From assembly GCA_035529915.1 (NCBI GenBank), contig DATKVU010000025.1, positions 1 through 58,689 of the forward strand: a DNA stretch of 58,689 nucleotides, given 5' to 3'. This DNA comes from Clostridia bacterium (GTDB lineage: Bacteria > Patescibacteriota > Microgenomatia > UM-FILTER-40-11). Both the position numbers and the translations under genes were made by a program. This document shows positions 1-58,689 of the stretch, in pieces; position 1 is the first letter of the stretch; every line of letters starts with the position of its first letter. The notes beneath the pieces were generated by a model that was not told the origin of the DNA, searched no databases, and saw only the letters and a program-made list of their open reading frames with translations.

Positions 1-128
1 AAACTGCCATAATTATTTCTAAACTTAGAGAGAGTCTTCAGGTTAATAATTATCAGTATAATCGCATATCCTGTTATATCTAAAAAGGAAGAAAATTTCC
101 TTAAAACTTTATTAAAAAATTTTTTCAT
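1..128 (-). CDS. N-terminal fragment of an unidentified ORF running off the left window edge
   Basis: ATG at 128-126 (minus), then 42 stop-free codons MKKFFNKVLRKFSSFLDITGYAIILIIINLKTLSKFRNNYGS reaching position 3. The hydrophobic stretch suggests a membrane protein. Too short in-window for the ORF track; no family assignable. Confidence 0.3.
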   Translation of the reverse strand, partial: MKKFFNKVLRKFSSFLDITGYAIILIIINLKTLSKFRNNYGS

Positions 129-147
129 AATATTATTTTTATTTGGC

Positions 148-176
148 ATTAAACTATCCAATGATAAATTCGGCAA
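148..176 (-). promoter_or_regulatory. candidate sigma70-type promoter for the edge ORF
   Basis: Minus strand TTGCCG (176-171) - 17 nt - TTTAAT (153-148), 19 nt upstream of the ATG at 128, inside the 101-nt gap 129-229. Motif reading only. Confidence 0.2.
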
Positions 177-229
177 CCAAAAAAATTTAGAAGGTTTAAT
201 TAAAATGTGATTAATTCCTTGCATTTCTA

Positions 230-910
230 TTATTTTTTTTCAAGATTAATAACGCTAAATAGTTCAAAAGCCATGGATGGAAAATAATAAGTGAATGTTT
301 GACTTAGGGTTGCCACGATAAACCAAAATATCTTTGGCTTAAATCTAATTGAAGTGAGCAAATCATCTCCCATCGTCTCGTTCTGGACTTCCCGCCTTAA
401 AAACCTTAGACCTGCTAGCCCACGAACTCTATAACCCTGCTTTTTCATCTTTTTATAATCCCATCCTGAAAGATGCTTTTGAAAAGGATTGTTATCAACC
501 GCTTTCTGGGGAATAAAACCGTTGGGCGAGGAAACGATAACCTTTCTTTTCGTCCATTTTTCCGCTTTTTTTAGCATCAAGAGACCCGTTTTTTCCGGTA
601 AATGCTCCAAGACCTCAATCATAATTACGGCATCAAAACTCTTTTCGGGAAAATCAAGTTCTTCAACTTTTTTATTCAGATATTTATTATGGATTTTCCT
701 CTTTTTTGATAGTTCCAAGTAAGGCTTAAAGGCTTCCACCCCAACCGAATATTTGATATTTTTACAATGCTGGAGGGGAGAGCTTGGCCCACAACCTAAA
801 TCTAAAACTGTTTGACAACCTTTTAGCTCCTCCTGCAGGCAATAATCAAGCGTATGAAATATCCTTCCGAAAAACCTTGAACGGTGTAATCGATTAATCA
901 TATCTTTCAT
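230..910 (-). CDS. class I SAM-dependent methyltransferase
   Basis: 226-aa ORF with motif I VLDLGCGPSS and DAVIMIEVLEHLPEK (Methyltransf_11/23-like). ATG at 910 sits in a 4-nt ATGA overlap with the upstream GT2 stop. Confidence 0.8.
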   Translation of the reverse strand: MKDMINRLHRSRFFGRIFHTLDYCLQEELKGCQTVLDLGCGPSSPLQHCKNIKYSVGVEAFKPYLELSKKRKIHNKYLNKKVEELDFPEKSFDAVIMIEVLEHLPEKTGLLMLKKAEKWTKRKVIVSSPNGFIPQKAVDNNPFQKHLSGWDYKKMKKQGYRVRGLAGLRFLRREVQNETMGDDLLTSIRFKPKIFWFIVATLSQTFTYYFPSMAFELFSVINLEKK

Positions 911-2847: not shown

Positions 2848-4317
2848 TTAACTAAACTCCAGCAATTTTGCTAAATATTTAAACCCTTGAAATCCAACAT
2901 ACTTTATGCCGGCAATCGATTTAAGTTGAGAAAGAGTGTTGAAAATAAACCTGGGCGTCCAAATCGATCGACTATAAAGACTGCGAACCGCTCCCAGAAG
3001 TTTTCCCTCCGGCACTTTAGTTTTCATAATCGCTTCCTGCATATCATAACGGTTCCAATCCTTAGTTTTCAAAAGCTTGTTTTTAAGACAATCGTCAAAA
3101 AGCGGCGTCCCGGGATAAGGAATCACTACTGTTGCCTGCAAAGAATCAGCCAGTCCGTCCCGGAAAAGCTTTTCTGCAAAGGCAATCGTGTTATTAACAT
3201 CTTTTTCGCTCTCCCAAGGGTAGCCAACCATAACCGTCAGGTGTGGCTTTAAACCCGCCTCTTTTGCCCATTTCAAAACCGGCTCAATTTGCTCAACTCG
3301 CAAATTTTTATTAATCCTCTCTAAAGTTTCTTGGGAAGCCGACTCGAGACCATAAAGGACAAAACGAAAACCGGCCTGACCCATTAAAAGATAATCTTCT
3401 TTAGTCATCCCGGCATTAAACCGCAGGTTACAATCGAAACGAACTTTCTTCTGATATCCTCGCCTCATAACCTCCCGGCAAAATTCCCTCAGCCAATCAC
3501 CAATCGGAAAAGTTCCCGAGTCATCCATAATTTCTTTAACCCCGTAATTCTCAACTAAATTCTCCACTTCTTCAATCGCCTGCTTAACGCTCATTACCCG
3601 ATATTTCTCCCCCGGAAAAAGAGTCGTCCAGGAACAAAAAGTACATTTCCCCCACCAGCAATCCCGCCCAAACATCGTGTAAGCGCCTGGAGCCTGATAA
3701 AAATTAGAATTCTTAAAAGCATAAAGCCGCCACTTGGTTAAGTCGCGGTCAATAATAGGCAGCTCACCCAAGTGATGGCTTAAAGTAAACTTCCCTGAAT
3801 TCCTAATCTCATTCCCCCTTTCTTCTCTGTACCAAATCCCAGGCTCTAGTTTTTCTCCTTTGGCAAGATAATTGGCAATACTCAAAAGCCCAAAATCATA
3901 ATCTCCGCCGGTAATCACAAAATCCGCTAACGAGTTTTCCATACTTTCCTGCGGGAGGGCAGTAACATGGTCGCCCATCAAAACTATTTTAAGTCGAGGA
4001 GAATCTTTTTTTAACTTATTTATAATTTGCCAGTGGTATTTGATTACCGGCGTTTTGGTCTCTATTGCCAAAATATCGGGATTAATTTCCAGAAGTTTTT
4101 TCTCCCATTGCTCGTAATTCATCTTTTCCGCCAATCCATCCAGCCAAAAAACCTGATAGTCTTTTTCTTTTAATAAACTGGCGGCACAAGCAGGCACAAC
4201 CGGATAAATAAAGTAGGCCACCGGTCCACCTTTTGTCCACTGAAATTGTCGGTTTTGGGAAATTTGAGGAATACCCTTCTGACAATCCAGCGGCGGGTAG
4301 CCGAGAACAATTTTCAT
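2848..4317 (-). CDS. B12-binding-domain radical SAM enzyme (class B-like)
   Basis: 489 aa. N-terminal Rossmann-like B12-binding segment (RLKIVLMGDHVT, ITGGDYD). Cys triad DCWWGKCTFC. Downstream radical SAM core boxes IMDDSGTF, YGLESASQE and VMVGYPWESEKD. ATG at 4317. Confidence 0.8.
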   Translation of the reverse strand: MKIVLGYPPLDCQKGIPQISQNRQFQWTKGGPVAYFIYPVVPACAASLLKEKDYQVFWLDGLAEKMNYEQWEKKLLEINPDILAIETKTPVIKYHWQIINKLKKDSPRLKIVLMGDHVTALPQESMENSLADFVITGGDYDFGLLSIANYLAKGEKLEPGIWYREERGNEIRNSGKFTLSHHLGELPIIDRDLTKWRLYAFKNSNFYQAPGAYTMFGRDCWWGKCTFCSWTTLFPGEKYRVMSVKQAIEEVENLVENYGVKEIMDDSGTFPIGDWLREFCREVMRRGYQKKVRFDCNLRFNAGMTKEDYLLMGQAGFRFVLYGLESASQETLERINKNLRVEQIEPVLKWAKEAGLKPHLTVMVGYPWESEKDVNNTIAFAEKLFRDGLADSLQATVVIPYPGTPLFDDCLKNKLLKTKDWNRYDMQEAIMKTKVPEGKLLGAVRSLYSRSIWTPRFIFNTLSQLKSIAGIKYVGFQGFKYLAKLLEFS

Positions 4318-4379: not shown

Positions 4380-6221
4380 ATGAACTTAACCAAATCGCAA
4401 AAAAAATTCCTTAAGAAAAATCTCAAAAAGCTCTCTTTTGAAGACTTAGCCGCTGGACTGGGCATTTCCCCCGACGAGCTAAGGACCTATCTCCGAGAGC
4501 ACCTGGCAAAGGAAAAGTATGAAAAATATTCCTCCCATTTTGAAAATCAAAATCCAGTCAGCGGGACTAGTCATTCGGGTAAATTTGGCCTTAATGAATT
4601 TATCAGAAAAAATTGGCCAACCCTAATCTTCCTGACCCTTTTAGCCCTAACAATTTATCTAAACTCGCTCGGTAATGATTTTCTCTCGGACGATATCTCC
4701 TCCATTAGGGACAATCCAAAAATCAGTAATCTGAATCCCGAGGGCGGTTTTAGTTTTATTTTTAATCTAAGAAGTTCTCTTTTGGCAATAACTTACCGCT
4801 TATTTGGCTTAAACCCCTTTTTCTTCCGCTTAACTAACCTTCTTTGCCACTTGGGTTCGACTTTAACTTTATTTACCCTAATGAATTTCTTCTTCTCTCC
4901 CCATATTCCTCTTCTGGTCGCCAGTCTCTTTGCCGTTCATCCTATTTTAGCCGAAAGCGTGACCTGGATTTCGGGCGGGCCATATTCTATCTCCACCTTT
5001 TTTCTTTTGTTGACATTTTTAGTCTATATTAAATCCGAAAAAGAAAAGAAGATCTCAGTCTACTTCATTTCCTTCATGCTTTTTTATCTTGCCTTAACCC
5101 AGGCATTCCAGGCCGTTGTTTTCACCGGGATAATTTTCTGGTATGAATTGACCTTGGGTAGCCTTAGAAAAAACTGGAAAAGATTAATGCCTTTTACTCT
5201 GACTGGTTTTGTTTGGGCATTGTATTTATTTGGGCTACTTGGCCAAAGAATCACTGCTCTCCAAACTTCCTTTTATCAGCAAGGAGGTCTCTATAATCCT
5301 CTCGCTCAAATCCCGATTGCGGTTTCCTCTTATTTAAGCTTAATCTTTTGGCCCTCTGGTCTGACACTCTATCATTCCGAAATGGCGTTCACAAATTCTG
5401 AATTCATCTTAAGAATGATCATGATCATTGGATTTATCGCAATAGCAACATATTTTATTAAGAAAGACAAAAGAACTTTCTTTTGGCTTTCGTTTTTCAT
5501 AATTGCCCTTCTCCCTTCTCTAACCCCTTTGAAAATTGCCTGGATTGTCGCTGAACGCTACGTCTACATGGGATCGATTGGAATCTTTGTCCTGGTAGCC
5601 TATCTAGTCCAAAAGATAAGCGAAAGACTTAATTGGAAAATACTGCCTTACCTCTTTTTGGCTGTCATCATCCCCTTGCTCTCCATAAGGACTATCAGGC
5701 GCAATCGAGACTGGAAAAATCAGGATACTCTTTGGCTGGCGGCAGCTAAAACTTCTCCTTCTAGCCCCCAAAACCATAATAACCTCGGCGACCTTTATTC
5801 CCGCCAAGGCGAATTCGAAAAGGCAGTGGCGGAATTTAAAATTGCAATTGAGCTTCTGCCAAACTATGGCGATGCTTATCATAATCTGGCTAATACCTAT
5901 CTTCAAATGGGAGAAATTGATTTAGCTATCCAAAACTATCAAAAGGCTCTTCAAACTAACTCTAATATTTGGCAATCTTACCAAAACCTGGCCGCTATTT
6001 ATCTTAACCAGAAAAACTTCTCCCCAGCAGCAGAAAACCTTAAAAAAGCAATTCAGTTAAACCCCGGCAGCGCCAAACTCCATACCTTCCTCGCCTTCGC
6101 CTACATAAATTTAGGAGAGAGTAAGGCGGCTCGGGAAGAATTAATGGTTTCCTTGCAATTGGACCCGAACGACCAGGAAGCAAGAAAGCTTCTGGAAGGC
6201 TTAACTCAACCTCCCAAATAA
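4380..6221 (+). CDS. TMTC/DUF1736-like GT-C membrane protein with C-terminal TPR repeats
   Basis: 613 aa. About 80-aa basic cytoplasmic head, then a multi-TM core with external-loop box GNDFLSDDISSIRDNPKI. C-terminal TPR repeats (NNLGDLYSRQGEFEKAVAEFKIAIELLPNYGDAYHNLANTYLQMGEIDLAIQNYQKAL...). One of only two plus-strand genes. Confidence 0.8.
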   Translation: MNLTKSQKKFLKKNLKKLSFEDLAAGLGISPDELRTYLREHLAKEKYEKYSSHFENQNPVSGTSHSGKFGLNEFIRKNWPTLIFLTLLALTIYLNSLGNDFLSDDISSIRDNPKISNLNPEGGFSFIFNLRSSLLAITYRLFGLNPFFFRLTNLLCHLGSTLTLFTLMNFFFSPHIPLLVASLFAVHPILAESVTWISGGPYSISTFFLLLTFLVYIKSEKEKKISVYFISFMLFYLALTQAFQAVVFTGIIFWYELTLGSLRKNWKRLMPFTLTGFVWALYLFGLLGQRITALQTSFYQQGGLYNPLAQIPIAVSSYLSLIFWPSGLTLYHSEMAFTNSEFILRMIMIIGFIAIATYFIKKDKRTFFWLSFFIIALLPSLTPLKIAWIVAERYVYMGSIGIFVLVAYLVQKISERLNWKILPYLFLAVIIPLLSIRTIRRNRDWKNQDTLWLAAAKTSPSSPQNHNNLGDLYSRQGEFEKAVAEFKIAIELLPNYGDAYHNLANTYLQMGEIDLAIQNYQKALQTNSNIWQSYQNLAAIYLNQKNFSPAAENLKKAIQLNPGSAKLHTFLAFAYINLGESKAAREELMVSLQLDPNDQEARKLLEGLTQPPK

Positions 6222-7268: not shown

Positions 7269-8069
7269 TCAACCCACATTAATCCTCATATCAAGCTCTT
7301 TATCGTAAACCCATTTTCTTTTATTTTTACTGTCATAATATTTAAGAATTTTCAAACGGTAAAAAACGGCCAAGGTGTCGAGCAGCATATCTAAAACAGT
7401 GGAAGTTTTGATGCTTGAATATTTGAATTTCCTGGCGTCCATTTCTACCGGACCATCATGAATTTTTCGAAAGCCAAGACGGTAAGCTACTGACAGGATT
7501 TCAATATCGAAGGCATACTCTTTCACTAAAAGCCTAGGCAAAACTTTTTCCAGCACCTCCCGCCGAAAAATTTTAATCCCCCTTTGACTATCGGTAATTC
7601 TCAATCCAAATAAAAACTCAACTAAAAGATGATAACCGAAGCTGAAAATTTTTCTTTTAAGGGGGTAACCAATAACCTTGGAGGCGGAATGTCTGATTGA
7701 GCCAACAATCACGTCTGAGCCATACCATTTCATATGTTCCAAAAGCATCGAAAGCGCATTGGGGTTAATATCCATCCCGGCATCGATAAAGGCGATTAAA
7801 TTGCCCTTAGCCCGAGCCATTCCATACCGAACGGCATAACCCTTACCGTGATTAGTCTGATAACCGACCACCTTTATTTTCGGAGAGCCGAGCCGGCGGG
7901 CTGCCTTAAAAGTCTTATCCGCCATTCCATCCACGACGCAAATAATTTCATAGTCGCAGTTTATTTGCTGCAAAACGCTCTCGATGTTTTGTAAATCTTT
8001 AGCAATTGTTCCTTCCTGCCGGTAAGCCGGGACAATAACGGAAAGCGTTTCTTTTATCTCTTTTGCCAT
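7269..8069 (-). CDS. family 2 glycosyltransferase, Dpm1/polyprenyl-phosphate glycosyltransferase-like
   Basis: 266 aa with LSVIVPAYRQEGTIAKDL, YEIICVVDGMADKT, NHGKGYAVRYG, AFIDAGMD, SQRGIKIFRREV and AFDIEILSVAYRLGF. No TM tail. Confidence 0.75.
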   Translation of the reverse strand: MAKEIKETLSVIVPAYRQEGTIAKDLQNIESVLQQINCDYEIICVVDGMADKTFKAARRLGSPKIKVVGYQTNHGKGYAVRYGMARAKGNLIAFIDAGMDINPNALSMLLEHMKWYGSDVIVGSIRHSASKVIGYPLKRKIFSFGYHLLVEFLFGLRITDSQRGIKIFRREVLEKVLPRLLVKEYAFDIEILSVAYRLGFRKIHDGPVEMDARKFKYSSIKTSTVLDMLLDTLAVFYRLKILKYYDSKNKRKWVYDKELDMRINVG

Positions 8070-28751: not shown

Positions 28752-28768
28752 AAAAAATAGTATACCCT

Positions 28769-35765: not shown

Positions 35766-35766
35766 T

Positions 35767-44367: not shown

Positions 44368-44368
44368 C

Positions 44369-45262: not shown

Positions 45263-45292
45263 ATTCTACCTTAATTGACAGACTGGACTCAA
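45263..45292 (-). promoter_or_regulatory. candidate internal sigma70-type promoter
   Basis: Minus strand TTGAGT (45292-45287, overlapping the upstream stop) - 18 nt - TAGAAT (45268-45263), 12 nt before ATG 45250. Lies in the 38-nt gap 45251-45288. Confidence 0.25.
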
Positions 45293-48494: not shown

Positions 48495-48552
48495 CAAATA
48501 ATTCTAGCATAAATAGGGCTGACAATATAATATATAACCAGGATACCATCAA
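48495..48552. promoter_or_regulatory. divergent intergenic region with back-to-back candidate promoters
   Basis: Plus strand TATAAT (48526-48531) with AGGA (48540-48543) 9 nt before ATG 48553, but a weak -35. Minus strand TTGATG (48552-48547) - 17 nt - TATATT (48529-48524), upstream of ATG 48494. Motif reading only. Confidence 0.3.
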
Positions 48553-50283: not shown

Positions 50284-50991
50284 TTAGGCAATTTTGGTCA
50301 ATTGAAGATACTTAAAAAGAGTGAAAACTGCCAGCAGCGCATCCTTGGCTTTAATTTTTTTACCTTCTTTATATCCCCGGGGTTGAGTTTTAATAGGCAC
50401 CTCTACAATCGGATATCCTTTCTTTAAAATTTTAGCCGTTATTTCCGGCTCAACCTCAAAACACCGGGAGACAATATTTAAATCACCATACACTTCTTTG
50501 GTCATCATTTTATAGCCGGTTTCCACATCGGTAAGATGAGAACCATAAAGAAAATTGGTTAATCCCGACAAAAATCGATTCGCCCAGTAATGAAGCGGCA
50601 AGGGAGTTTTATTTTTACCCCAAAGCTTAAACTTAAGTTTCTTGAGGCGCGTTCCAAAAACGACTTCCACTTTTCCCAAAATAATTGGCTCCAGGAGTTT
50701 ACAATAGTACTTCGGATCATATTCCAAATCGGCGTCTTGAATAATTAGGACATCGCCGGTAGCATTTTTAATCCCCTTACTTACCGCGGCTCCTTTGCCT
50801 TGGTTGACTTTATGAAAGAATACCCTAATTTCTTTATTTCTGAATTTCTTTATTTCTTCTCTCGTCCCGTCAGTTGAGCCGTCATCAACGATAATTATTT
50901 CCTTGGGAGTTTTTTCAGCCAATACCCGCCTAATAACTCGACCAATGGTCTTTTCTTCATTAAAGACGGGGATAACGACGGAAAGCTTCAT
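50284..50991 (-). CDS. family 2 glycosyltransferase, Dpm1-like polyprenyl-phosphate sugar synthase candidate
   Basis: 235 aa with LSVVIPVFNEEKTIGRVI, IIIVDDGSTDGT, NQGKGAAVSKG, IIQDADLEYDP and TDVETGYKMM. Confidence 0.8.
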   Translation of the reverse strand: MKLSVVIPVFNEEKTIGRVIRRVLAEKTPKEIIIVDDGSTDGTREEIKKFRNKEIRVFFHKVNQGKGAAVSKGIKNATGDVLIIQDADLEYDPKYYCKLLEPIILGKVEVVFGTRLKKLKFKLWGKNKTPLPLHYWANRFLSGLTNFLYGSHLTDVETGYKMMTKEVYGDLNIVSRCFEVEPEITAKILKKGYPIVEVPIKTQPRGYKEGKKIKAKDALLAVFTLFKYLQLTKIA

Positions 50992-52682
50992 TTGAACCGC
51001 GGATAACGAATTTTTCGGATAACCAAGGCCGGGAAAACCAACCAGCTGACCAGAGAAATTAAATTGGCTGCCGTCCGCACGGGAGTGTTAGTAAACTTAA
51101 GCCTTAGTTCGTGATTACCAACGGGGACTTTCACCGTAATTAGTCCCAAAGGGTTATCATAACTGATAGCGACTGGCTGATTATCTAACCAAGCTTTCCA
51201 GCCGGGAAAATAATAAACGGGGATTTCCCACGCCGCTTCTTCCTTCGCCTGAGCTTGAAAAGAATACCAATCGCTCCCCTTCTGAATATTCTTCGCCTCA
51301 GCCGCCCCCGCCTTCAAGATTGGACCAGCTGGGGCCTCCTGAGCTGGTGGCGCTTGAGCATATTTTGGTAAATAATCAAAAATGGCATCCGTTTGCAGTT
51401 TGCGCCAACCCAAGGCCGAAAAGAGTTTTTGCTCATCACTAATCTTAAGAATTTTTTCTACCCTAAAAAAAGAAAAGTTTAAGCTTACCGCCAAAGTTAT
51501 CCCCATTAAAGCCGTCCATTTTGCCCACTTAGTTGACTTAAGGAAAATCATTAATCCTCCCCCCAACACAGAAACAGCAAAAATCACTAATGTCAAAAAT
51601 CGCCAAGGGAATTGTAGGTAAGCCAAAAGGGGGATTTTTTGCCAAATCAAGTTAGAGCGAGGATGAACCAAAAAAAGGCTTAAAAGGAAAAGAGCAAAGA
51701 AAAAGCCCACCAAGAAAACTACCTCTTTTTTAACCCGCCGTCGCCAATAGCCGAAAATGGCGAACGACAACACCAGTACTGCCAGCGGCCAGTGAGGAAA
51801 GCCGACCTGAAACGGCATCCCTGTTTCTTGTAACCAGCCACTAGAACCATAGCCCCAAAACCGAGTAAACAACATTTTCCCAATAGAAACATAATGGGCT
51901 AAGAAGTTGAAATAACCCATTAACATCGTCTCTACGTGAACATATTTTTTTTCGACTAAAACCGGCAGAGTAAAAAAGGCAGCCAGCCCCAAACCCCACC
52001 AACCACCCAAAGCTAACCTAATTATTTTCTCTTTCCCATCTTTCTTCTTTAACCAGATTAAAAGCAAAGCAAAAGCAATGAAGGTCGGCATAAAAATAAA
52101 AGCCATCAGATTGTGGGAAAGCAGCAAAAAACCAAAAAACAACGCCAAAAGAGGCAATTTATTTTTTCCTTTTTCCTCTACCACGATTTCATAAATCGCC
52201 CAATAAACTCCCGGCAGAAACGCTAAGGCCCAAAACTCATTCATTGCTCCCCGAACATAAACATCAACTGCATGATATGGCGCCCATAAATACAAAATAG
52301 CGCTCAAAAGCCCTCCCCAATCTCCCCAAAGTTTTCTCGTAAAAAGAAACATGAGGACTCCCGAAACCAAAAAACCAGCAATGAATAAAAGCTTTACCGA
52401 ATCAATAAAACTTAAACCCAAAAGATGAAAGATTTCGCCTAAGCAGTAGGGAAAAGGTGGGTAGTAATTAAAAAGGGGATAGCCATAAGAATAGCCCATA
52501 TCCGGCACCCAACGGCAAGGAATCTGACCATCCTTCACACACAAATCCATCTGATAAAGCCGCCCGACTTGCAAATCATCATGCATGGGAAAATAACCAG
52601 GTCGGAAAAGATCCCTTGAAGTCAAGAAAGAAGTGGCTAAAATTACTAAAACAAAAAACCAGTAACGTTTAAGAATTTTCAT
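50988..52682 (-). CDS. HD-loop polytopic membrane protein with YfhO-type C-terminal module (paralogue of 26278-27999)
   Basis: 564 aa. YFPMHDDLQVGRLYQMDLCVKDGQIPCRWVPDMGYSYGYPLFNYYPPFPYCLG. C-terminal YYFPGWKAWLDNQPVAISYDNPLGLITVKVPVGNHEL plus a terminal TM. Confidence 0.65.
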   Translation of the reverse strand: MKILKRYWFFVLVILATSFLTSRDLFRPGYFPMHDDLQVGRLYQMDLCVKDGQIPCRWVPDMGYSYGYPLFNYYPPFPYCLGEIFHLLGLSFIDSVKLLFIAGFLVSGVLMFLFTRKLWGDWGGLLSAILYLWAPYHAVDVYVRGAMNEFWALAFLPGVYWAIYEIVVEEKGKNKLPLLALFFGFLLLSHNLMAFIFMPTFIAFALLLIWLKKKDGKEKIIRLALGGWWGLGLAAFFTLPVLVEKKYVHVETMLMGYFNFLAHYVSIGKMLFTRFWGYGSSGWLQETGMPFQVGFPHWPLAVLVLSFAIFGYWRRRVKKEVVFLVGFFFALFLLSLFLVHPRSNLIWQKIPLLAYLQFPWRFLTLVIFAVSVLGGGLMIFLKSTKWAKWTALMGITLAVSLNFSFFRVEKILKISDEQKLFSALGWRKLQTDAIFDYLPKYAQAPPAQEAPAGPILKAGAAEAKNIQKGSDWYSFQAQAKEEAAWEIPVYYFPGWKAWLDNQPVAISYDNPLGLITVKVPVGNHELRLKFTNTPVRTAANLISLVSWLVFPALVIRKIRYPRFK

Positions 52683-52716: not shown

Positions 52717-54216
52717 CTATTTGGCCAACACTTCAAAGAAAAGGAGGTTTTCTTTTCCCTCACGACTTTCAGCTTTTGGATACTTTGCAATGAGGCGCAA
52801 ATTGCTTCGGTTGCTCACCATAAATCGTGAATCATTAACCAGTAAAAAGACGCGGTTACTAACCAAACCGCTGGTTAGCTTACTGGAAATCTCTCTTACT
52901 GGCTCACCCAAACCAATCACCGTTACTCTTGGCGTTTTTTCCAAATATATTTGTAAACCCTCTGGTAAAGTGCCGAAATACCCTTCTGTTCCCACCAAAA
53001 CATTTTCCTTTTTAGCCACTTCCCTAAGGTAATCGGCCGCTTCCTTAATTCCGTATCCTGCTGTCCAAATTTCTAGATAGCCATATCTTTCATTTTTGGG
53101 CAACCAGGCTTTTTGAGGATTCACTAAAAGAAGCGCAATTTGATAGACAGGAACAACAAAAAAAACAATTAAGACCAAAGTGGTTATCCATCGGCTTTTT
53201 AGCGAAGAAAAAATTTTCCAAAGAAGGTAGGCGGCGAAGATTAAAAATATCGGGACTGTAAACAAGATATAACGAGCAGTATAAACTTTGGCAATCGCAC
53301 TTTGGCCTAAAAGCGGGATTAGCAGCCAAAGCCAGAGGAGCCCTCCTTCTTTAAGGTGTCGTTTAAGCACCAAGACTCCCCCGGTGATAGCACTAACAAA
53401 AGAAAGGGGGGTCAAAAAAATCCAAAACCACTCGATTACACTTTTCAGGTTGCCCCAAAAAGGATTTAGGGGGTGACTCAAGACTTCTCGGAAAGAAAAA
53501 ACATAATCCTTATTGCGGATAGCAATCATCTGAAATTCTGGTCCTAGACGAAGAATGTTATAAATAGCAAAACCAAAAAGATAAACAACCCCCCACAAGA
53601 AAACCAATTTAACAATGTTGTAGGGACGCATCATCATGCGTCCGTTCAAGATTATTGTCGTCGGCAAAAGCAGAGCAAAAAAGAGCGCCGGCGATTTAGT
53701 AATCAAACCCAAACCCAAAAGTACTCCTGTGATCATCGCCAGATCCAGCCTTTTTTCTTTTGCCAGTCCTACTGCTCCCACTATCACCCAAATACCAAAG
53801 AAAGAAAGCAAACCGTCAGCCAACGCCAGCCGATCAAAAAAGAAAGTGAATGGTGAAATCAAATATAAAATAGCTCCCAAAAAAGCCACTTCTTTCTTTT
53901 TAAAAAGAAGCAGGCTTAAAGTAAAAATTCCTACCATCGTCCCCAAACCGGCTCCCACCGAGACTAACCGACCGGCGACCAGGGGATCGGAGAATATCTT
54001 TAAAAAGGGCATTATTAACCACATAAATAAAGGCTGTTTACCGTCAGATAAGGGCAAAAAACGCAAAGTACTTACCGCCCGCATTACTTGAGCCCAACGG
54101 ATATAAATTGCTTCATCAACAAATACCGGAATTATGGTCAGATTGATCAACCGCGTGACGAAGTAAGCAAGAATTAAAAAAGCGCCTAGTATGCAATCTT
54201 GAACTTTCAATTTCAT
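52717..54216 (-). CDS. ArnT/PMT_2-like GT-C glycosyltransferase (singleton)
   Basis: 499 aa multi-TM. Loop 1 IPVFVDEAIYIRWAQVMRAVSTLRFLPLSDGKQPLFMWL (DE-x-Y and K-x-PL boxes of ArnT-type enzymes). Confidence 0.75.
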   Translation of the reverse strand: MKLKVQDCILGAFLILAYFVTRLINLTIIPVFVDEAIYIRWAQVMRAVSTLRFLPLSDGKQPLFMWLIMPFLKIFSDPLVAGRLVSVGAGLGTMVGIFTLSLLLFKKKEVAFLGAILYLISPFTFFFDRLALADGLLSFFGIWVIVGAVGLAKEKRLDLAMITGVLLGLGLITKSPALFFALLLPTTIILNGRMMMRPYNIVKLVFLWGVVYLFGFAIYNILRLGPEFQMIAIRNKDYVFSFREVLSHPLNPFWGNLKSVIEWFWIFLTPLSFVSAITGGVLVLKRHLKEGGLLWLWLLIPLLGQSAIAKVYTARYILFTVPIFLIFAAYLLWKIFSSLKSRWITTLVLIVFFVVPVYQIALLLVNPQKAWLPKNERYGYLEIWTAGYGIKEAADYLREVAKKENVLVGTEGYFGTLPEGLQIYLEKTPRVTVIGLGEPVREISSKLTSGLVSNRVFLLVNDSRFMVSNRSNLRLIAKYPKAESREGKENLLFFEVLAK

Positions 54217-54219: not shown

Positions 54220-54981
54220 CTAATTTATCGAATATAAACCTTTCAAATCATTAAGCTTCACTCGAAAAATCTGCTTTAGCATTTCCAAAGATTCTTTAAG
54301 ATAACTCTTTTTTTTGCTGGTGCTCACATCCCTGTCTTTCCATTCCACGGCGACTTCTTTGATTTTGTAACCAAACTTTTCCGCTAGGAAAAGAAGTTCG
54401 ACATCAAAAGAAGTCACTTTCCACCCCCTAACTTGTTTTTTCTGTCGGAAAAATTCTAAACGCGGAAAAATTTCCTTAGCCACTTCTGCCCTCAAGGCCT
54501 TAAATCCACACTGCGTGTCTTTAATCCCTCTTAAAAAAAAGGCTTGACGAATTAACCGAAAAGCTACCGAACCGACCTTTCTAAGAACCCCAAAGTTTTC
54601 CCTTATTGATCCTCGGGAACCAATCACCACTTCATATTCATCAAAAAAAGGCATCAATTTTGAAACCTCCTTCAAAGGAGCTGATTGATCCATATCGCTA
54701 AAAAGGACATATTCTCCTTTGGCCTCTTTTATCCCTCCCCAAACCGCTGACGGCTTTCCGCCGTGCAAGTTTTCTACCAGCCGAAAACCAGCCTTTCCTA
54801 TAACGGCCTTTTTGACCAACTCTCGACTGTTATCGGTTGAACCATCATCTGAAACAATTACCTCCCAACTAAACCTTTGCTTTCCCAAAAAATTTTCTAC
54901 TTCTTCCAAAACCCCCCGCTCAAGATTTTCTCTCTCGTTATAACAAGGAATAACAACTGATAAATAGGGCCGTTTAGTCAT
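54220..54981 (-). CDS. family 2 glycosyltransferase, ALG5/Dpm1-like polyprenyl-phosphate sugar synthase candidate
   Basis: 253 aa with LSVVIPCYNERENLERG, EVIVSDDGSTDNS, LFSDMDQS, DTQCGFKALR and SFDVELLFLAEKFGYKIKEVAVEWKD. Confidence 0.8.
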   Translation of the reverse strand: MTKRPYLSVVIPCYNERENLERGVLEEVENFLGKQRFSWEVIVSDDGSTDNSRELVKKAVIGKAGFRLVENLHGGKPSAVWGGIKEAKGEYVLFSDMDQSAPLKEVSKLMPFFDEYEVVIGSRGSIRENFGVLRKVGSVAFRLIRQAFFLRGIKDTQCGFKALRAEVAKEIFPRLEFFRQKKQVRGWKVTSFDVELLFLAEKFGYKIKEVAVEWKDRDVSTSKKKSYLKESLEMLKQIFRVKLNDLKGLYSIN

Positions 54982-56503
54982 TAAACTTTATCCTTTCTCT
55001 TTTCTGGACAGTAATATCCCCCCAGAAGTCATTCTTAATCGCTTTGCCGATGGTATCTTGCCGTTTTTGCCAAGCTTGTAAAAACTGGGGGTGCTCACCG
55101 TCAGGTTCATAAAGAGTATAAAGATTTTTGACCAGCTTTGTTTCCGGTTCTCGACCATATTTGGTTTGGCCATACCAGCGGAAAAGATAGGAATATGAGT
55201 AAAATATCTGCGGCGGAACATAAGCGTCAATATTAAACTCCTCATCCTTAGCATCCTCATAAATCCAGTCAATCGCCCAAGTTTGAGCTTTTAGAGTAAT
55301 CCCAATTCCGGTCTTAAGATAGTTTTTGATAAACCGTATATTACCAAACGCAAAAAGTATCAAAAATATTCCCAAGACCACCCGAGGAATTAAATTTCTA
55401 TCCGCCAAAGATTTTAAGCCGGCCGCCAACAGGATAATAAAAGCCGGAATAACGCCGGTAAAATAATAATCCCAAACATAGCCGTGATTCCCTCGGTAAA
55501 GCAGAAATCCCAAAATGGGAGAGACCAGCCAGATTAAAAGCAGTTTCCCGCCCGGACTAAAGACCTTTTTCCGGGAAAAAAGGAGCGTTGCGGAAAACAA
55601 GGCTAAAAGCCCCATCTTGACCCATTTTTGGCCAAAAGAGAACTTGCCGAAAAAGACATCATAATAGGTCAGAAGCCTCAAGCGCATAGTTTGAACCAGA
55701 GAAAGGCCAAAACTTCGCTCTCCCACCAAGAAACGATGGAAAGCATCCCGCAAAATTCCTTGATGTCGCCAATCGAAAACGATCTGGGGCAACAAAGTCG
55801 CCAAGAAAGCCAGGAAAGCCAAAACTAAAACGGTAGGCTTTTTAAAAATCCGCCTTTGCCAAAAAAGAATCCCCAAAGTCGCCGGTAAAAACCAAACTGC
55901 CGATGCCGCTTCCAGTTGTAAACAAAGTCCGATAAAAAAAGCCGCCCCAATCAAGGCCTTATCTCTACCCTTAACAAAAATGTAAAGAAAAAAAAGAACA
56001 ATCATCGTAAAGAAGGGCAGAGGGCTGGGGTTAGCCAGCCAGCGGCTGAAAACCACTAAGTCATAAGAAAAACCGTAAAGGAAAGCGGCCAATAAACCGA
56101 CTTCCCGACTGTAAATTTCTTTTCCCAAAAGGTAAATCAAAAAAATGGCGCCCACGGTTAGCCAGGACTGGCCAGCCGCCGCCATCACCGGACTCCCTTT
56201 ACCGAGCCAATAAAAGGGCATCAAAAGATAATAAAAAAACGGCCCCAAATAAATACCCTCGATACCGGTTACCGGACCAATTAAAAAGAATTTCCCATAA
56301 TGGAGGAAGTCCCAAATCACTAAGGCGTCTCTTCCCTGGTCATACCAGAAACCGAGAAGGTCATTTAATCGATACAGCCTAAAGAAAGCCGAGAAAGAGA
56401 GAATGAGAAAAAGAATAAAATAAATAGTCTTGTGAGCTTTTATTTCCTTTCCCAGCCCCACTAAGCAACTTTGAATTTTGGACTGCAACTTTGAACTACT
56501 CAT
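54974..56503 (-). CDS. COG1807/ArnT-like GT-C glycosyltransferase, family 2 paralogue
   Basis: 509 aa multi-TM. Loop 1 GFWYDQGRDALVIWDFLHYGKFFLIGPVTGIEGIYLGPFFYYL. Confidence 0.7.
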   Translation of the reverse strand: MSSSKLQSKIQSCLVGLGKEIKAHKTIYFILFLILSFSAFFRLYRLNDLLGFWYDQGRDALVIWDFLHYGKFFLIGPVTGIEGIYLGPFFYYLLMPFYWLGKGSPVMAAAGQSWLTVGAIFLIYLLGKEIYSREVGLLAAFLYGFSYDLVVFSRWLANPSPLPFFTMIVLFFLYIFVKGRDKALIGAAFFIGLCLQLEAASAVWFLPATLGILFWQRRIFKKPTVLVLAFLAFLATLLPQIVFDWRHQGILRDAFHRFLVGERSFGLSLVQTMRLRLLTYYDVFFGKFSFGQKWVKMGLLALFSATLLFSRKKVFSPGGKLLLIWLVSPILGFLLYRGNHGYVWDYYFTGVIPAFIILLAAGLKSLADRNLIPRVVLGIFLILFAFGNIRFIKNYLKTGIGITLKAQTWAIDWIYEDAKDEEFNIDAYVPPQIFYSYSYLFRWYGQTKYGREPETKLVKNLYTLYEPDGEHPQFLQAWQKRQDTIGKAIKNDFWGDITVQKRERIKFND

Positions 56504-58041
56504 TTATTGTGCATTAATTTAAATAGTTTCACTCCCCAAGGAAAGGTCCATTCTTCTTCTATCTTACTCCAACCAAAGCTGGCAATTTCAGCTTGGGGAT
56601 GGGTAGTCGGTTCACAAACACTCTCTTCACAGACAACAAAGAGCTGGTTGGTAATCGTTTCTTCTGACCGCTGAGCATCAATCATCGCCGGTTTATATCC
56701 GGCTTTTTCCAAAAAATAACGGTAGCCGGCATCATAATTCTGCTTAGCGATTAATCCAAGATTGAAAGGTTTTCCTTCCGCCTCCTCAACTATTTTTTGA
56801 CTAACCATAGCCGTGTGTTGCATCTGGAAATTAGGACTTCCCCTCAAGGGACAAGCCTCAAAAGCAAAGTAAAATATCGCCACCAGCCCCGCAACCGCTA
56901 AGATCTTTCCCGCTTTCCCTACCTCCCAAGCTTTACCTAAGGAAACCGCCATCAACAGAAAAATCGCCGGGAAAAGAAAACCGAAGTAATGACCATAAAT
57001 ATGCTGTTTATAGAGTCCCATTCCCCAAAGGCCAATCAAAATCCAGCTTAGTAAGAGAAATAACCCCCGACCTTCTTTCCTCTTCCGCTTGTCTCCGACA
57101 ACTAAGAAAAAGGTAATTGTGGAGAAAATTAATAGAAGCGGAGATAGCCAGGAACCAAAAACTGCATCCCGGCTGGTCAAAAGGCACGTCACCATCATCT
57201 GCCAAAGCGGCCAAAGTTGAGGAATTGCCTTATACGGCTTTAGACTAACCGTCGCCTGCCGATCAGTAAAAAAACGGTAAAAAGCCTTATAGTTAATAAA
57301 ATTATGACGTAAATCAAACCAAATTAAAGGCAAGATAGACAAAACGAAAAAAGTCATTATTCCTAAGCCGGTCCAAATTAAAAAGCTTCTGGTTTGGCGA
57401 TTTTTAGTTCTTAGCAAATCTCTTAATTTCACCAACCAAAACAGGCCGGCCACCGGCAAAAGAAGCAAGCCCAGATAGTGAGACTGAATCGCTACCGAAC
57501 AACCCAAACCAACGACCACCATTCCCCAAAATTGGTTCCTTTGCCAAAATTGCCAGACTCCCCAAATTGAAAGCAGAGCAAAGAAGGGCATAATATTCGG
57601 ATTCCAAGCAGAACGCGAAAGAACAATCGCTACTGGCGAGAGGGCATATAAAAGGGCAGCCAGCAAACCGACTTTTTGAGAAAACCATTCCTTGGACACA
57701 AACCATAAAAGAAAGGCAGTTGCACCCCCAAGCAAAGCCGTGCCGATTGAAGGCCCAGCAGTTCCTAAAAGAAGATAAAAGGGCAGCATTAAGTAATAAA
57801 AAAGGGGGGCCAAGTACATATTACCTATTGAAGTCTGTGGTCCAATCAAGGTGAATTTTCCTCTGCTCATTCGCAACCAAACCAAAGCGTCTCTCCCCTC
57901 ATCCCCTAAAAAAGTCATATATGAGCCGATTCGCCAAAGACGCAAAAAAAGCGCTAGACCGACAATAAAAAAAATCGCTCCCGCCAACCGCCAATTTTTC
58001 CTAAGCCAACTGGTTAATTCTCTTATTTTATTTGCCACCAC
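56500..58041 (-). CDS. COG1807/ArnT-like GT-C glycosyltransferase, family 2 paralogue
   Basis: 513 aa multi-TM. Loop 1 TFLGDEGRDALVWLRMSRGKFTLIGPQTSIGNMYLAPLFYYL. GTG start (58041 or 58038) overlapping the upstream GT2 3' end. Confidence 0.7.
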   Translation of the reverse strand: MVANKIRELTSWLRKNWRLAGAIFFIVGLALFLRLWRIGSYMTFLGDEGRDALVWLRMSRGKFTLIGPQTSIGNMYLAPLFYYLMLPFYLLLGTAGPSIGTALLGGATAFLLWFVSKEWFSQKVGLLAALLYALSPVAIVLSRSAWNPNIMPFFALLSIWGVWQFWQRNQFWGMVVVGLGCSVAIQSHYLGLLLLPVAGLFWLVKLRDLLRTKNRQTRSFLIWTGLGIMTFFVLSILPLIWFDLRHNFINYKAFYRFFTDRQATVSLKPYKAIPQLWPLWQMMVTCLLTSRDAVFGSWLSPLLLIFSTITFFLVVGDKRKRKEGRGLFLLLSWILIGLWGMGLYKQHIYGHYFGFLFPAIFLLMAVSLGKAWEVGKAGKILAVAGLVAIFYFAFEACPLRGSPNFQMQHTAMVSQKIVEEAEGKPFNLGLIAKQNYDAGYRYFLEKAGYKPAMIDAQRSEETITNQLFVVCEESVCEPTTHPQAEIASFGWSKIEEEWTFPWGVKLFKLMHNK

Positions 58042-58689
58042 AACTTACCTAATTCAAAAAATGATTTAAAAATGACTCTCGGCCCCGCCCCCGTCTGTTT
58101 CCCGCCTCCCCGCGGAAAGTGGCCAACTCCTACTTCCGTTATCTTAAAACCCGCTTTCCCCGCCCGGGCTAACAGTTCGGGCGAGATCATTCCTCCCCGA
58201 GTTGACTGGAGAGGGGGAATGGTCTTGATAACCTTTCTTTTAATTAATTTGAAGGCACAATCGACATCGCGGACACTAATTCCCAACAAAATTTTCGACA
58301 ACGTCGTCCAGCCCCAACCGAAAAGTTTCCTTTTGAAAGAATCCTGTCGATTAAGGCGATAACCCACTATCACATCGAATTCCTTCGCTTTCTCAATTAA
58401 TTTCGTCACTTCGGTAAAATCAAACTGACCGTCGGCATCGATAAAGGCAATCCATTCATGCTGACTGTTGTAAAAACCGGACTTAAGCGCCGCTCCGTAG
58501 CCTTGATTAGAAGGATGAGTGATCACCCGAATAAAAGGGTTATCTCGAGCTAAATTTTGGGCAATTTCTCCGGAACGATCCTTCGAGCCGTCATTAACAA
58601 TAATTAATTCGTATTTCTTAGCGATTTGCCGAAGAACCGGAATGACATCTTTAACTGTTTTTTCTAAATTCGCTTCCTCGTTATAAACC
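58023..58689 (-). CDS. family 2 glycosyltransferase, Dpm1-like (5' end outside the window)
   Basis: The track ORF starts at an internal GTG (58526), but the frame stays open to the window edge. My translation of 58527-58559 reads QNLARDNPFIR, continuous with VITHPSNQGYGAALKSG. Downstream boxes are FIDADGQFD and RDVDCAFKLI. Stop at 58023. Confidence 0.8.
   Translation of the reverse strand, partial: VYNEEANLEKTVKDVIPVLRQIAKKYELIIVNDGSKDRSGEIAQNLARDNPFIRVITHPSNQGYGAALKSGFYNSQHEWIAFIDADGQFDFTEVTKLIEKAKEFDVIVGYRLNRQDSFKRKLFGWGWTTLSKILLGISVRDVDCAFKLIKRKVIKTIPPLQSTRGGMISPELLARAGKAGFKITEVGVGHFPRGGGKQTGAGPRVIFKSFFELGKLWWQIK

Follow-up and report, generated by a model that had tools for sequence, protein, structure and literature searches.

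The DNA analysed here, hereafter the window, is a 58,689-bp contig of a metagenome-assembled genome (MAG) at NCBI (locus tags VMW25_, MAG label 'Clostridia bacterium') that carries a dense array of glycosyltransferase genes. Based on sequence profiles and structure models, its 24 large polytopic proteins other than two flippases were all connected to the GT-C superfamily of membrane glycosyltransferases, two of them, g13 and g29, being without the catalytic region. Judged by the homologous loci of related genomes, the cluster is conserved vertically throughout the lineage; the window is one expanded instance of it and not a one-off island. We consider it somewhat probable that the cluster encodes a conserved core assembly line for an extracytoplasmic glycan, along with variable peripheral decoration cassettes.

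Assignment of the polytopic proteins to GT-C families

Forty-six open reading frames (ORFs) of at least 167 amino acids (aa), g01 to g46 (Table 1), cover approximately 99% of the 58,689 bases (coding fraction ~0.99). All but g05 (4380–6221) and g39 (48553–50106), which lie on the plus strand, are on the minus strand (44 of 46), a strand bias with a two-sided binomial p of ~3e-11 if genes are taken as independent. At 37 of the 41 same-strand junctions, the two genes either overlap, often by a 4-nucleotide (nt) ATGA-type overlap, or lie ≤15 nt from each other, indicating an operon-like, translationally coupled array. The GC content is even across the window, at 35–45%. The hydropathy scan identified 26 polytopic proteins; subtracting two Wzx/MOP flippases (g08 and g38) left 24, one per 2.45 kb, with 7–15 hydrophobic segments in 22 of them, consistent with the approximately 7–13 TM helices of GT-C enzymes, and 5–6 in g13 and g29. 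This recount by ORF listing and hydropathy reproduced a first-pass annotation of the window, made from the sequence alone, which had described a one-strand locus of 46 ORFs with 24 polytopic proteins at about one per 2.4 kb. Between 8001 and 40000, the AT skew on the plus strand was strongly positive (maximum +0.38 at 32–34 kb) and the coding strand was T-rich; the skew tracked the stretches encoding polytopic proteins, as is expected because hydrophobic codons carry U at the second position.

Pfam families were assigned at scores above the gathering threshold, and weak matches were also sought at E ≤10. GT-C families exceeded the gathering score in 17 of the 24 proteins, namely PMT_2/PMT in 11 (g12, g14, g15, g17, g19, g28, g30, g35, g42, g44, and g45), YfhO in g24 and g25 (78 and 116 bits against a gathering score of 28.5 bits, making both members), PTPS_related in g22 and g41, GT87 in g26, and the PIG-V-type Mannosyl_trans2 in g09. 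The transmembrane (TM) part of g05, as well as g13, g16, g18, g29, g37, and g39, had no significant GT-C match in Pfam even at E ≤10, and none in NCBIfam. In all-versus-all BLASTP, the polytopic proteins fell into the paralog groups F1 (g12, g14, g15, g17, g28, and g30, with g13 attached; 27–32% identity, 47% between g28 and g30), F2 (g35, g44, and g45), F3 (g22 and g41), F4 (g24 and g25; 37%), and F5 (g16 and g37; 30%), with g05, g09, g18, g19, g26, g29, g39, and g42 as singletons. Paralogs that are only 27–47% identical point to old duplications and not to collapsed repeats.

For the proteins lacking a Pfam match, class alignments of window proteins and their homologs from 78 related loci were converted to profiles and compared by hhalign. 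Thereby g13 aligned to F1 at a probability of 99.8% (residues 66–418), g18 at 98.8%, g29 at 98.6% (residues 156–400), and g05 at 96.8% (96.0% to F2), while F5 aligned to the YfhO class at 97.1% and to F2 at 96.4%. The Wzx profile, an equally hydrophobic negative control, reached ≤0.4% against every class. The best hhalign probability for g39 was 20%. Among PDB sequences, the F1 profile found ArnT (5ezm, E 0.0028) and Pmt1 (E 0.028); searches of the same sequences with g16, g39, g17, and the F5 profile gave no meaningful match, and fold comparison alone was successful.

The AlphaFold2 (AF2) model of g39, based on a 48-sequence alignment (predicted local distance difference test, pLDDT, 94; predicted TM-score 0.92), consists of a helical bundle and a C-terminal mixed alpha/beta domain. 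The 20 best Foldseek matches to it in PDB were without exception GT-C enzymes (PglB, STT3, AglB, Pmt4, DPY19, ArnT, AftD, and AftB), the best supported having E values of 1e-4 to 1e-2, a probability of 1.00, and TM-scores of 0.41–0.52, and past rank 20 the probability fell below 0.1. The g16 model (49 sequences, including g37; pLDDT 91.6) has the same architecture and matched STT3, AglB, and PglB at E values of 2e-9 to 4e-6, after which came DPY19, AftA, and ArnT; the C-terminal globular domain of AglB was matched by the C-terminal domain of the model. The assignment of g39, g16, and g37 is thus supported by models that matched GT-C enzymes only, at a probability of 1.00, and for F5 by hhalign as well. 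Hence, with 17 proteins placed by Pfam and the rest via hhalign or AF2 and Foldseek, rather than most failing to match, the GT-C-like nature that the first-pass annotation had ascribed to all 24 was borne out.

Two other identities were considered and rejected. Since g16/g37, g39, and g18 lie near Wzx genes, they could have been Wzy polymerases or O-antigen ligases; the models match GT-C(A) folds only, and g18 aligns to F1. As for a bona fide oligosaccharyltransferase (OST), F5 has no STT3 Pfam match and the WWD motif occurs in 0 of 49 F5 sequences, so that the fold alone is OST-like. A conserved stretch of F5, AWYST at residues 577–581, is a candidate for the position of WWDYG. No Pfam family was matched at E ≤10 by g16 or g37, and DUF6541 appeared on F5 homologs below threshold only. 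Among 1.84 billion representatives, 574 belong to the g39 family at E ≤1e-10; neither g39 nor any of 10 distant relatives tested had a Pfam match. According to the models, the g39 family and F5 are thus two GT-C-fold families without a Pfam model.

An acidic box after the first TM helix (TM1) was visible in 22 of the 24 N-termini, the exceptions being g13 and g29, in agreement with the earlier claim that all but two reduced F1 copies carry one. The motif is DE in F1, g18, g42, and g45, EE in g19, D/E-x-G-R-D in F2, HD in F3 and F5, FDG in g09, DD in g05, and D-E-R-D in g39. D35/E36 of F1 is invariant in the six F1 paralogs and present in 98% of 46 F1 sequences; position 54 of F2 (D/E54) is acidic in 100%, D55 of F3, D139 of F5, and D73 of the PIG-V-like class are each conserved in 100%, and D50 of the GT87-like class in 91%. 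A conserved acidic residue was also found in the g42 class and in g05 (DD 104–105). D36, E37, and D39 of the g39 family are invariant in 48 sequences, and in the model they open the first juxtamembrane helix, which follows TM1. Conservation was weaker in F4, where D67 (89%) was the sole passing residue, and D40-E41 of g18 and EE 44–45 of g19, which align to the DE of F1, were seen in single window sequences only. According to the paper on AftB (PMC12041299), every GT-CA enzyme depends for catalysis on an Asp at the tip of juxtamembrane helix 1, and the position of the acidic residue in the window proteins is that of this catalytic Asp.

Because the catalytic loop is absent from them, g13 and g29 were not counted as enzymes, and they are probably not enzymes. 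In other genomes the g13 slot holds a second full-length g12-like gene (order '14 12 12 11'), and the relative L090, whose g16 ortholog is 83% identical, has kept a g13 version of 253 aa; g13 may be either a slowly decaying remnant or a re-purposed protein. The 230-aa, 6-TM protein g29 is always encoded directly upstream of a g28/g30-type GT-C gene, and this pair was present in more than 30 loci or genomes (L010–L069), often standing alone outside any cluster. The neighbours of isolated g29–g28 pairs showed no conservation and gave no clue to the acceptor. From this pairing, g29 may be a conserved non-catalytic subunit or partner of g28/g30-type GT-C enzymes.

A G9 homopolymer was observed on the coding strand of g16 (window 20044–20052, codons 34–37), where slipped-strand switching would be possible in principle. 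The ortholog of a close relative carries an interrupted version (GGGGGAGGG), and the assemblies of the window DNA do not differ in the tract, which is probably incidental.

Extent, conservation, and source of the cluster

The first-pass annotation treated the window as a singular 58-kb locus, which it is not: the window is a slice of a locus of at least 75.7 kb (at least 13,355 + 58,689 + 3,691 bp) in which at least 28 genes are GT-C-like; arrays of this kind are also frequent in related genomes. To the right follow the rest of g46, a 393-aa PMT-family GT-C gene on the opposite strand, a GT2–GtrA fusion, and a UDP-glucose dehydrogenase, and TrmD and glycogen genes form the boundary of the locus. 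The left flank encodes four methyltransferases, a hexapeptide acyltransferase, an epimerase/dehydratase, a GT2, and a GT4, and further left two polytopic, YfhO/PTPS-like proteins that are paralogs of each other (881 and 824 aa), the former with a sub-threshold AftD match (24 bits, gathering score 26). Far left there are also a polytopic IPT/TIG-domain protein and a PMT_2 gene cut by the contig end. The former, of 366 aa with the IPT/TIG domain at its C-terminus, lies between GT-C genes approximately 12–13 kb left of the window start (L091 12334–13434) and may bind the glycan or an acceptor.

Conservation was scanned with g28 and g30 as the query in one genome per GTDB species, which yielded 534 relatives, and the best 78 loci, almost all of them from Patescibacteria, were compared by labelling each ORF with its best window homolog. 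The order (38 36 32 31 27) 24 21 20 15 ... 14 12 12 11 10 09 08 07 06 05' recurred, which is the window order with fewer insertions, and this ortholog-labelled synteny was kept across named Woese-, Shapiro-, Davies-, Ames-, Gottesman-, Levy-, and Collierbacteria. At least five GT-C-like ORFs were present in 57 of the 78 loci and at least 10 in 11 of them. The 48 loci longer than 20 kb had a median of eight GT-C-like ORFs per ~21.5 kb (0.33/kb, compared with 0.41/kb in the window), a density biased upward by centring the sample on an F1 homolog. Variation between relatives was confined to the cluster periphery: L090 has kept g16–g09, with nucleotide-salvage genes replacing g08–g01, and L088, from a co-binned organism, is without g28–g30 and has three extra GT-C genes. 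The literature on glycosylation in the candidate phyla radiation (CPR), Patescibacteria, and Microgenomates gave no analysis of such a cluster, as the first-pass annotation had supposed in stating that no functional dissection was known; the sole mention found was a passing count of 29 glycosyltransferase genes in a complete Microgenomates genome (PMC7143001).

These comparisons bear on the earlier suggestion that the locus is combinatorial and a plausible determinant of surface variation. As such an island, it would consist of many independent Gtr-like modules, each adding an optional side-chain, which strains would gain, lose, or switch, diversifying their surface as a defence against phages or for host recognition. 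Small DPM1/ArnC-like GT2 genes directly upstream of one or two GT-C genes (g46-45-44, g43-42-41, and g34-35) have the layout of Gtr-type modules, the syntenic locus of a related organism has extra or missing GT-C genes, the closer relative (83% identity) is without the g08–g01 module at that site, and Gtr systems cause serotype conversion (PMC11127046). However, core order and orthology are kept across whole candidate phyla, the paralogs diverged anciently (27–47% identity), the GC content is uniform (35–45%), and the single G9 tract is not conserved. Furthermore, the window contains no significant tandem repeats, invertible elements, tRNAs, Rfam families, or mobile-element genes. The conserved core order thus favours a housekeeping-type envelope polymer over a hypervariable surface-variation island. 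With only the periphery varying and no phase-variation signal, the suggestion is not supported for the locus as stated; a surface-variation island, which we regard as quite unlikely, fits the periphery and not the conserved core.

Named homologs of F1, F5, and g39 came from Woese-, Shapiro-, Roizman-, Davies-, Ames-, Levy-, Gottesman-, and Collierbacteria or a 'Patescibacteria group', and the TrmD bounding the locus is 65–73% identical to Microgenomates TrmD proteins. Because these homologs and identities are all from Microgenomates/Patescibacteria, the label 'Clostridia' is wrong or uninformative, and the organism is assigned to Microgenomates (Patescibacteria/CPR), which accords with the small-genome bacterium expected in the first-pass annotation. 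The source MAG holds two TrmD genes, 80% identical, each beside its own copy of the glycosylation cluster (L006 3402–4073; L088), indicating that the bin mixes two related Microgenomates populations. We therefore rejected L088 as a paralogous second copy in the same genome and ascribe it, with its own 80% identical TrmD, to the second organism of the mixed bin. Many ENA 'binchicken'/third-party-annotation (TPA) MAG records titled 'uncultured Gammaproteobacteria/Pseudomonadales bacterium', including a 615-kb 'chromosome 1' (OZ246397.1), and a 'Deltaproteobacteria bacterium' record carry a Microgenomates-type cluster; such titles are apparently placeholders or taxonomically wrong. For a few of the matches, the MAG label was Limnocylindrales or Acidiferrales.

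The GT-C gene density would be unreal if the assembly were chimeric or collapsed, or the contig mis-binned. Assembly ERZ27256810 breaks at ~47.6 kb of the window, inside the Wzx gene g38, where a second locus in the same sample is 88.5% identical in nucleotide sequence, and the source MAG has the 'Clostridia' label and two TrmD genes. However, a 137-kb ENA contig is 100% identical to the window from 1 to ~47.6 kb, a 34-kb contig of another ENA assembly (ERZ27256808) equals 44,974–58,689 at 99.96% and bridges the break, and JGI and Logan contigs also match, 44,974–58,689 being covered at 99.9–99.96%. In total, five independent contigs agreed with the window DNA at 99.9–100%, so that the chimeric collapse named in the first-pass annotation as a refuting outcome was not borne out. 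Moreover, paralogs only ~30% identical cannot be collapsed copies, the gene order recurs in dozens of other genomes, and mis-binning touches the taxon label and not the contig. An artefact is thus exceedingly unlikely, and we treat the window as a true, non-chimeric locus. The identity around g38 stands out in its own right: window ~46856–48663 and L088 8305–10111 are 88.5% identical in nucleotide sequence, the adjoining genes are 76–83% identical or unalignable, and the assembly break falls exactly there. Unusually strong conservation or a recent exchange of the flippase gene may explain it.

Table 1. Genes of the window with their positions, strand, and the evidence for each assignment
Feature	Position	Strand	Evidence
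5' part of 248-aa methyltransferase-like gene, cut by window start	1..224	-	L002 10687-11433 = window 224..1; Methyltransf_23 27.1 bits
g01 S-adenosylmethionine (SAM)-dependent methyltransferase	230..910	-	Pfam Methyltransf_11 44 bits
g02 GT2 + C-terminal TM helix	907..1932	-	Glycos_transf_2 96 bits; TM near residue 302
g03 GT2 + C-terminal TM helix	1929..2843	-	Glycos_transf_2 76 bits; TM near residue 282
g04 B12-binding radical-SAM enzyme (class B; candidate sugar C-methylase/ring modifier)	2848..4317	-	Radical_SAM 69 bits + B12-binding; HpnJ-like 157 bits, far below cut-off
g05 GT-C-like polytopic domain + C-terminal TPR domain	4380..6221	+	TPR residues 455-611; TM part by hhalign to F1 96.8%, F2 96.0%; DD 104-105
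g06 GT2 + C-terminal TM helices	6206..7279	-	Glycos_transf_2, Glyco_trans_2_3; TM 259-312
g07 GT2, soluble	7269..8069	-	Glycos_transf_2 87.6 bits
g08 MOP/Wzx-like lipid-linked-sugar flippase	8080..9360	-	Polysacc_synt_3 60 bits, Polysacc_synt 49 bits
g09 GT-C, PIG-V/GT87-like	9353..10525	-	Mannosyl_trans2 31.9 bits (gathering 22.4); FDG, D73
g10 GT4 (GT-B)	10522..11571	-	Glycos_transf_1 143.7 bits
g11 GT2	11574..12407	-	Glycos_transf_2 66.8 bits
g12 GT-C F1 (PMT_2, GT39/83-like)	12370..14004	-	PMT_2 35.3, PMT 25.2 bits; D31-E32
g13 truncated F1-like protein without TM1, DE loop, C-terminal domain	14004..14804	-	hhalign 99.8% to F1 residues 66-418
g14 GT-C F1	14801..16468	-	PMT_2 38.3, PMT 29.9 bits; DE motif
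g15 GT-C F1	16465..18123	-	PMT_2 30.9, PMT 27.9 bits; DE motif
g16 GT-C F5, no Pfam model, fold nearest OST catalytic subunits	18137..20152	-	AF2 pLDDT 91.6; Foldseek; HD139G invariant
g17 GT-C F1	20163..21827	-	PMT_2 52.2, PMT 34.8 bits; D35-E36
g18 GT-C-like, distant PMT_2 relative without C-terminal domain	21824..23107	-	No Pfam match; hhalign 98.8% to F1, residues 10-427; D40-E41
g19 GT-C, PMT_2	23107..24567	-	PMT_2 41.7 bits; EE 44-45 aligns to F1 DE
g20 GT2	24582..25409	-	Glycos_transf_2 84.5 bits
g21 GT2	25406..26293	-	Glycos_transf_2 80.5 bits
g22 GT-C F3 (PTPS_related/YfhO-like)	26278..28035	-	PTPS_related 43.7 bits; hhalign 100% to YfhO class; HD55
g23 membrane-anchored SurA_N/PrsA-like chaperone-domain protein	28065..28781	-	SurA_N_3 37.4 bits; one TM helix
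g24 GT-C F4 (YfhO)	28769..31147	-	YfhO 78 bits
g25 GT-C F4 (YfhO)	31153..33471	-	YfhO 116.4 bits; 37% identity with g24
g26 GT-C, GT87-like	33440..34753	-	GT87 39.5 bits (gathering 25)
g27 GT4	34698..35792	-	Glycos_transf_1 67.6, Glyco_transf_4 42 bits
g28 GT-C F1	35767..37428	-	PMT 27 bits; 47% identity with g30; DE motif
g29 small 6-TM protein like middle of F1 enzyme	37425..38117	-	hhalign 98.6% to F1 residues 156-400
g30 GT-C F1	38114..39778	-	PMT_2 28.7 bits; DE motif
g31 GT2	39717..40499	-	Glycos_transf_2 79.1 bits
g32 GT2 (rhamnosyltransferase-like, below threshold)	40518..41465	-	Glycos_transf_2 73.6; TIGR01556 74.6 bits, below cut-off
g33 SAM methyltransferase	41440..42024	-	Methyltransf_11 63.8 bits
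g34 ArnC/PgfS-like polyprenyl-phosphate GT2, two C-terminal TM helices	42026..42913	-	NCBIfam ArnC, PgfS below curated cut-offs; TM near 233, 257
g35 GT-C F2 (PMT_2)	42910..44406	-	PMT_2 36.9 bits
g36 GT2	44369..45250	-	Glycos_transf_2 88.8 bits
g37 GT-C F5, g16 paralog	45289..47010	-	30% identity to g16 over 596 aa; in g16-model alignment; HDG 45-47
g38 MOP/Wzx-like flippase	47007..48497	-	Polysacc_synt_3 196 bits
g39 GT-C-fold protein, family without Pfam model	48553..50106	+	AF2 pLDDT 94; Foldseek PDB; D36, E37, D39 invariant
g40 DPM1/AglJ/PpgS-like GT2 (candidate polyprenyl-phosphate hexose synthase)	50284..50991	-	Glycos_transf_2 130 bits
g41 GT-C F3 (PTPS_related)	50988..52682	-	PTPS_related 29.5 bits; 28-30% identity to g22
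g42 GT-C, PMT_2	52717..54216	-	PMT_2 39.4 bits; D34-E35
g43 DPM1-like GT2	54220..54981	-	Glycos_transf_2 89 bits
g44 GT-C F2 (PMT_2)	54974..56503	-	PMT_2 40.5 bits
g45 GT-C F2 (PMT_2/PMT)	56500..58041	-	PMT_2 36.2, PMT 35.2 bits
g46 ArnC/DPM1-like GT2, first ~35 nt past window end	58023..58689	-	Glycos_transf_2 51.7 bits; full 233-aa gene L006 7780-8481

Candidate donor synthases, proposed pathway, and possible acceptors

According to Pfam, 14 of the 46 proteins are GT2 enzymes (g02, g03, g06, g07, g11, g20, g21, g31, g32, g34, g36, g40, g43, and g46), two are GT4 enzymes (g10 and g27), two Wzx/MOP flippases (g08 and g38), and two SAM methyltransferases (g01 and g33), with one B12-binding radical-SAM enzyme (g04) and one SurA_N-like protein (g23). 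The first-pass statement that every assignable ORF is related to glycosylation holds for nearly all of them; it does not cover g23 (a SurA_N-like chaperone), g04, or g01 and g33, which plausibly have accessory functions. The small GT2 enzymes of the cassettes resemble polyprenyl-phosphate sugar synthases in NCBIfam, at scores below the curated cut-offs: g34 matched ArnC at 199 bits over residues 2–288 (316-position model) and PgfS at 145 bits, g40 matched AglJ (115 bits), PpgS (68.6 bits), and the dolichyl-phosphate (Dol-P)-hexose transferase (52.6 bits) nearly over its full length, g43 matched positions 3–210 of the 213-position Dol-P-hexose transferase model at 44 bits, and the full g46 gene (L006 7780–8481) matched ArnC at 84.5 and PgfS at 76.5 bits, again nearly over the full length. 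As the NCBIfam matches of the GT2 and GT4 enzymes are all below cut-offs, their sugar specificities are not assignable.

The flippase candidates are g08 and g38 in the window and a GtrA_DPMS_TM domain fused to a GT2, 3 kb past the window end. A MATE/MOP flippase for undecaprenyl-phosphate ribose has been described, and MOP-family flippases can serve polyprenyl-phosphate monosaccharides (PMC11127046). The class-B radical-SAM enzyme g04 and at least six SAM methyltransferases (g01, g33, and four in L002 10687–17473) accompany the glycosyltransferases, and the same combination of radical-SAM enzyme and methyltransferases stands beside the cluster in L062. This combination suggests methylated or otherwise unusual sugars. 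Wzy_C, Bac_transf, and Glycos_transf_4 had no match on the window proteins or on the flank proteins that were scanned or had precomputed assignments.

Considering these results, we propose the following scenario, in which the operon-like cluster of at least 76 kb, with the window as its central part, would both build and decorate a glycan of the cell surface, mostly at the outer face of the cytoplasmic membrane. In the cytoplasm, a lipid-linked primer may be started from nucleotide sugars by the soluble GT2 and GT4 enzymes g07, g10, g11, g20, g21, g27, g31, g32, and g36. ArnC/DPM1/AglJ-like GT2 enzymes (g34, g40, g43, g46, and the GT2–GtrA protein of the flank) may charge polyprenyl phosphate with single sugars, some of which would be methylated or modified by g01, g33, and g04. 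The MOP/Wzx-like g08 and g38 and the GtrA domain may then flip the primer and the polyprenyl-phosphate sugars outward; the use of such sugars outside the membrane is inferred from the co-encoded ArnC/DPM1-like GT2 enzymes and flippases. There, approximately 22 catalytically competent GT-C enzymes of more than 10 sequence classes would each add a particular sugar or linkage by means of the acidic residue of the first loop. The core (g05–g15, g20–21, g24, g27, and g31–32) probably makes the backbone of a lineage-wide envelope polymer, while the peripheral cassettes of a small GT2 and one or two GT-C genes (g34–35, g40–42, g43–45, and g46), which differ between relatives, may act as Gtr-type decoration modules. 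The non-catalytic g13 and g29 would be a remnant and a conserved partner, respectively.

Several points weigh against this scenario. Each of its steps is drawn from family membership, every donor-synthase match (g34, g40, g43, and g46) is below its NCBIfam equivalog cut-off, the Foldseek TM-scores are moderate (0.41–0.52), and no initiating phosphoglycosyltransferase, Wzy, ligase, or polyprenyl-phosphate synthesis gene was seen in the ~76 kb. Furthermore, the evidence does not separate an assembly line for one polymer from many independent modules for decoration or protein glycosylation, and two features, the TPR domain in g05 and the OST-like F5 fold, would suit proteins better than polysaccharides as acceptors.

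The acceptors could thus be proteins. The PMT_2, TPR, and YfhO-type GT-C enzymes would then O-glycosylate secreted or surface proteins, such as an S-layer protein, pilins, or Ser/Thr-rich regions, in the manner of PMT/TMTC enzymes or of streptococcal Pgf/GtrB systems, and the OST-like F5 proteins beside the Wzx-like flippases would transfer an oligosaccharide en bloc. F1 and F2 match PMT/PMT_2, and the F1 profile found ArnT and Pmt1 in PDB; PMT_2, however, also spans ArnT-type transferases acting on lipids and glycans. TMTC O-mannosyltransferases carry a TPR domain, as does g05. Structurally, F5 comes closest to STT3, AglB, and PglB, with the C-terminal globular domain of AglB also matched, and g37 is translationally coupled to the Wzx-like g38, a pairing of this class with wzx that was seen again in L013 and L043; against this stand the missing STT3 Pfam match and WWD motif in the 49 F5 sequences. 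The best match of g40 is AglJ, of archaeal S-layer N-glycosylation, and the PrsA/SurA-like chaperone g23 lies inside the cluster, yet the cluster encodes no candidate acceptor protein, and more than 20 distinct GT-C enzymes are far above the need of any known protein-glycosylation system. We therefore regard protein glycosylation as somewhat unlikely and retain the assembly of an envelope glycan as our working scenario.

CPR bacteria (Patescibacteria) account for a large share of bacterial diversity, have genomes of approximately 1 Mb, and live attached to other cells; to our knowledge, next to nothing has been established about their surface chemistry. At 76 kb or more, the cluster would amount to several percent of such a genome, given to at least 28 glycosyltransferases predicted to act outside. 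Conservation of the core over many Microgenomates candidate phyla suggests a central role for an elaborate surface glycan in these bacteria, for example in envelope integrity, attachment, or phage defence. More tentatively, Microgenomates, and perhaps other CPR bacteria, may make an unrecognised class of envelope glycoconjugate, built almost wholly outside the membrane by a conserved co-linear cascade of approximately 20–30 GT-C enzymes and forming a bacterial counterpart of the mycobacterial arabinogalactan (AG)/lipoarabinomannan (LAM) or endoplasmic reticulum (ER)-lumen pathways. Such a cascade would include at least two GT-C families without a Pfam model, with F5 (g16/g37) as a new OST-like enzyme without WWDYG that attaches the finished glycan to protein or wall, and g29 as an obligate non-catalytic partner of F1.

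Comparison with known glycosylation systems

The three-component logic of polyprenyl-phosphate sugar synthase, flippase, and GT-C enzyme, like the individual families, is well known (PMC11127046, PMC5836110, PMC8035078), and multi-enzyme GT-C cascades have been described for mycobacteria and the ER (PMC12041299). The present locus stands out by the scale and co-linearity of the array, its conservation across Microgenomates, the two GT-C-fold families without a Pfam model, and the putative non-catalytic partner g29. The locus would be the densest known GT-C array and a natural library of linkage specificities for glycobiology. The enzyme classes with their predicted catalytic residues, the two Pfam-less families, the candidate donor synthases, and the g29–g28 module are the targets that it offers.

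Wzx/Wzy loci for O-antigen and capsule likewise encode a Wzx-like MOP protein together with several cytoplasmic GT2 and GT4 enzymes in a single operon-like unit. Unlike in those loci, no Wzy, WaaL-type ligase, chain-length regulator, or initiating phosphoglycosyltransferase was found here, and the polytopic candidates have GT-C(A) folds. The mycobacterial and corynebacterial pathways for AG, lipomannan (LM), and LAM (EmbA/B/C, AftA-D, PimE, and MptA-C, using decaprenyl-phosphate arabinose or mannose; PMC12041299) are similar in that a cascade of linkage-specific GT-C enzymes follows cytoplasmic priming of the GT4 type, and the GT87 match of g26 (39.5 bits) and the sub-threshold AftD match of the 881-aa flank protein recall them. 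In contrast to these pathways, neither Emb/Aft orthologs nor a pathway to decaprenyl-phosphate arabinose (DPPR synthase, DprE1/E2, or a UbiA-type enzyme) was seen here; the mycobacterial genes are mostly dispersed, whereas those of the window form one array, and the CPR organism is ultra-small with a different envelope.

Serial action of GT-C enzymes with Dol-P-sugars on the non-cytoplasmic face also characterises the archaeal Agl system (AglJ/AglD, AglR, AglS, and AglB), the ER pathway (ALG3/9/12/6/8/10 and STT3), and glycosylphosphatidylinositol (GPI) synthesis (PIG-M/V/B). These share with the cluster an AglJ/DPM1-like GT2 (g40), Wzx/AglR-like flippases, the PIG-V-like g09, and the STT3/AglB-like fold of F5, but F5 lacks WWDYG and an STT3 Pfam match, the host is bacterial, and the number and kinds of GT-C enzymes differ.

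Gtr-type systems (GtrA/GtrB/GtrC, CsbB-GtcA-YfhO, ArnC-ArnE/F-ArnT, streptococcal PgfS/PgfM, and GT136) combine a GT2 polyprenyl-phosphate sugar synthase, a small or MOP flippase, and an outside GT-C enzyme. The cluster resembles them in its YfhO and PMT_2/ArnT-like proteins, its candidate ArnC/PgfS-like donor synthases, and the GtrA domain of its flank, although, unlike in those systems, no target polymer locus, such as one for O-antigen or for teichoic acid, the typical acceptor of YfhO, is recognisable beside it. Whereas a Gtr-type system has one GT-C enzyme, rarely a few, the present locus encodes at least 28 from more than 10 classes, in a co-directional array that is syntenic over a bacterial class.

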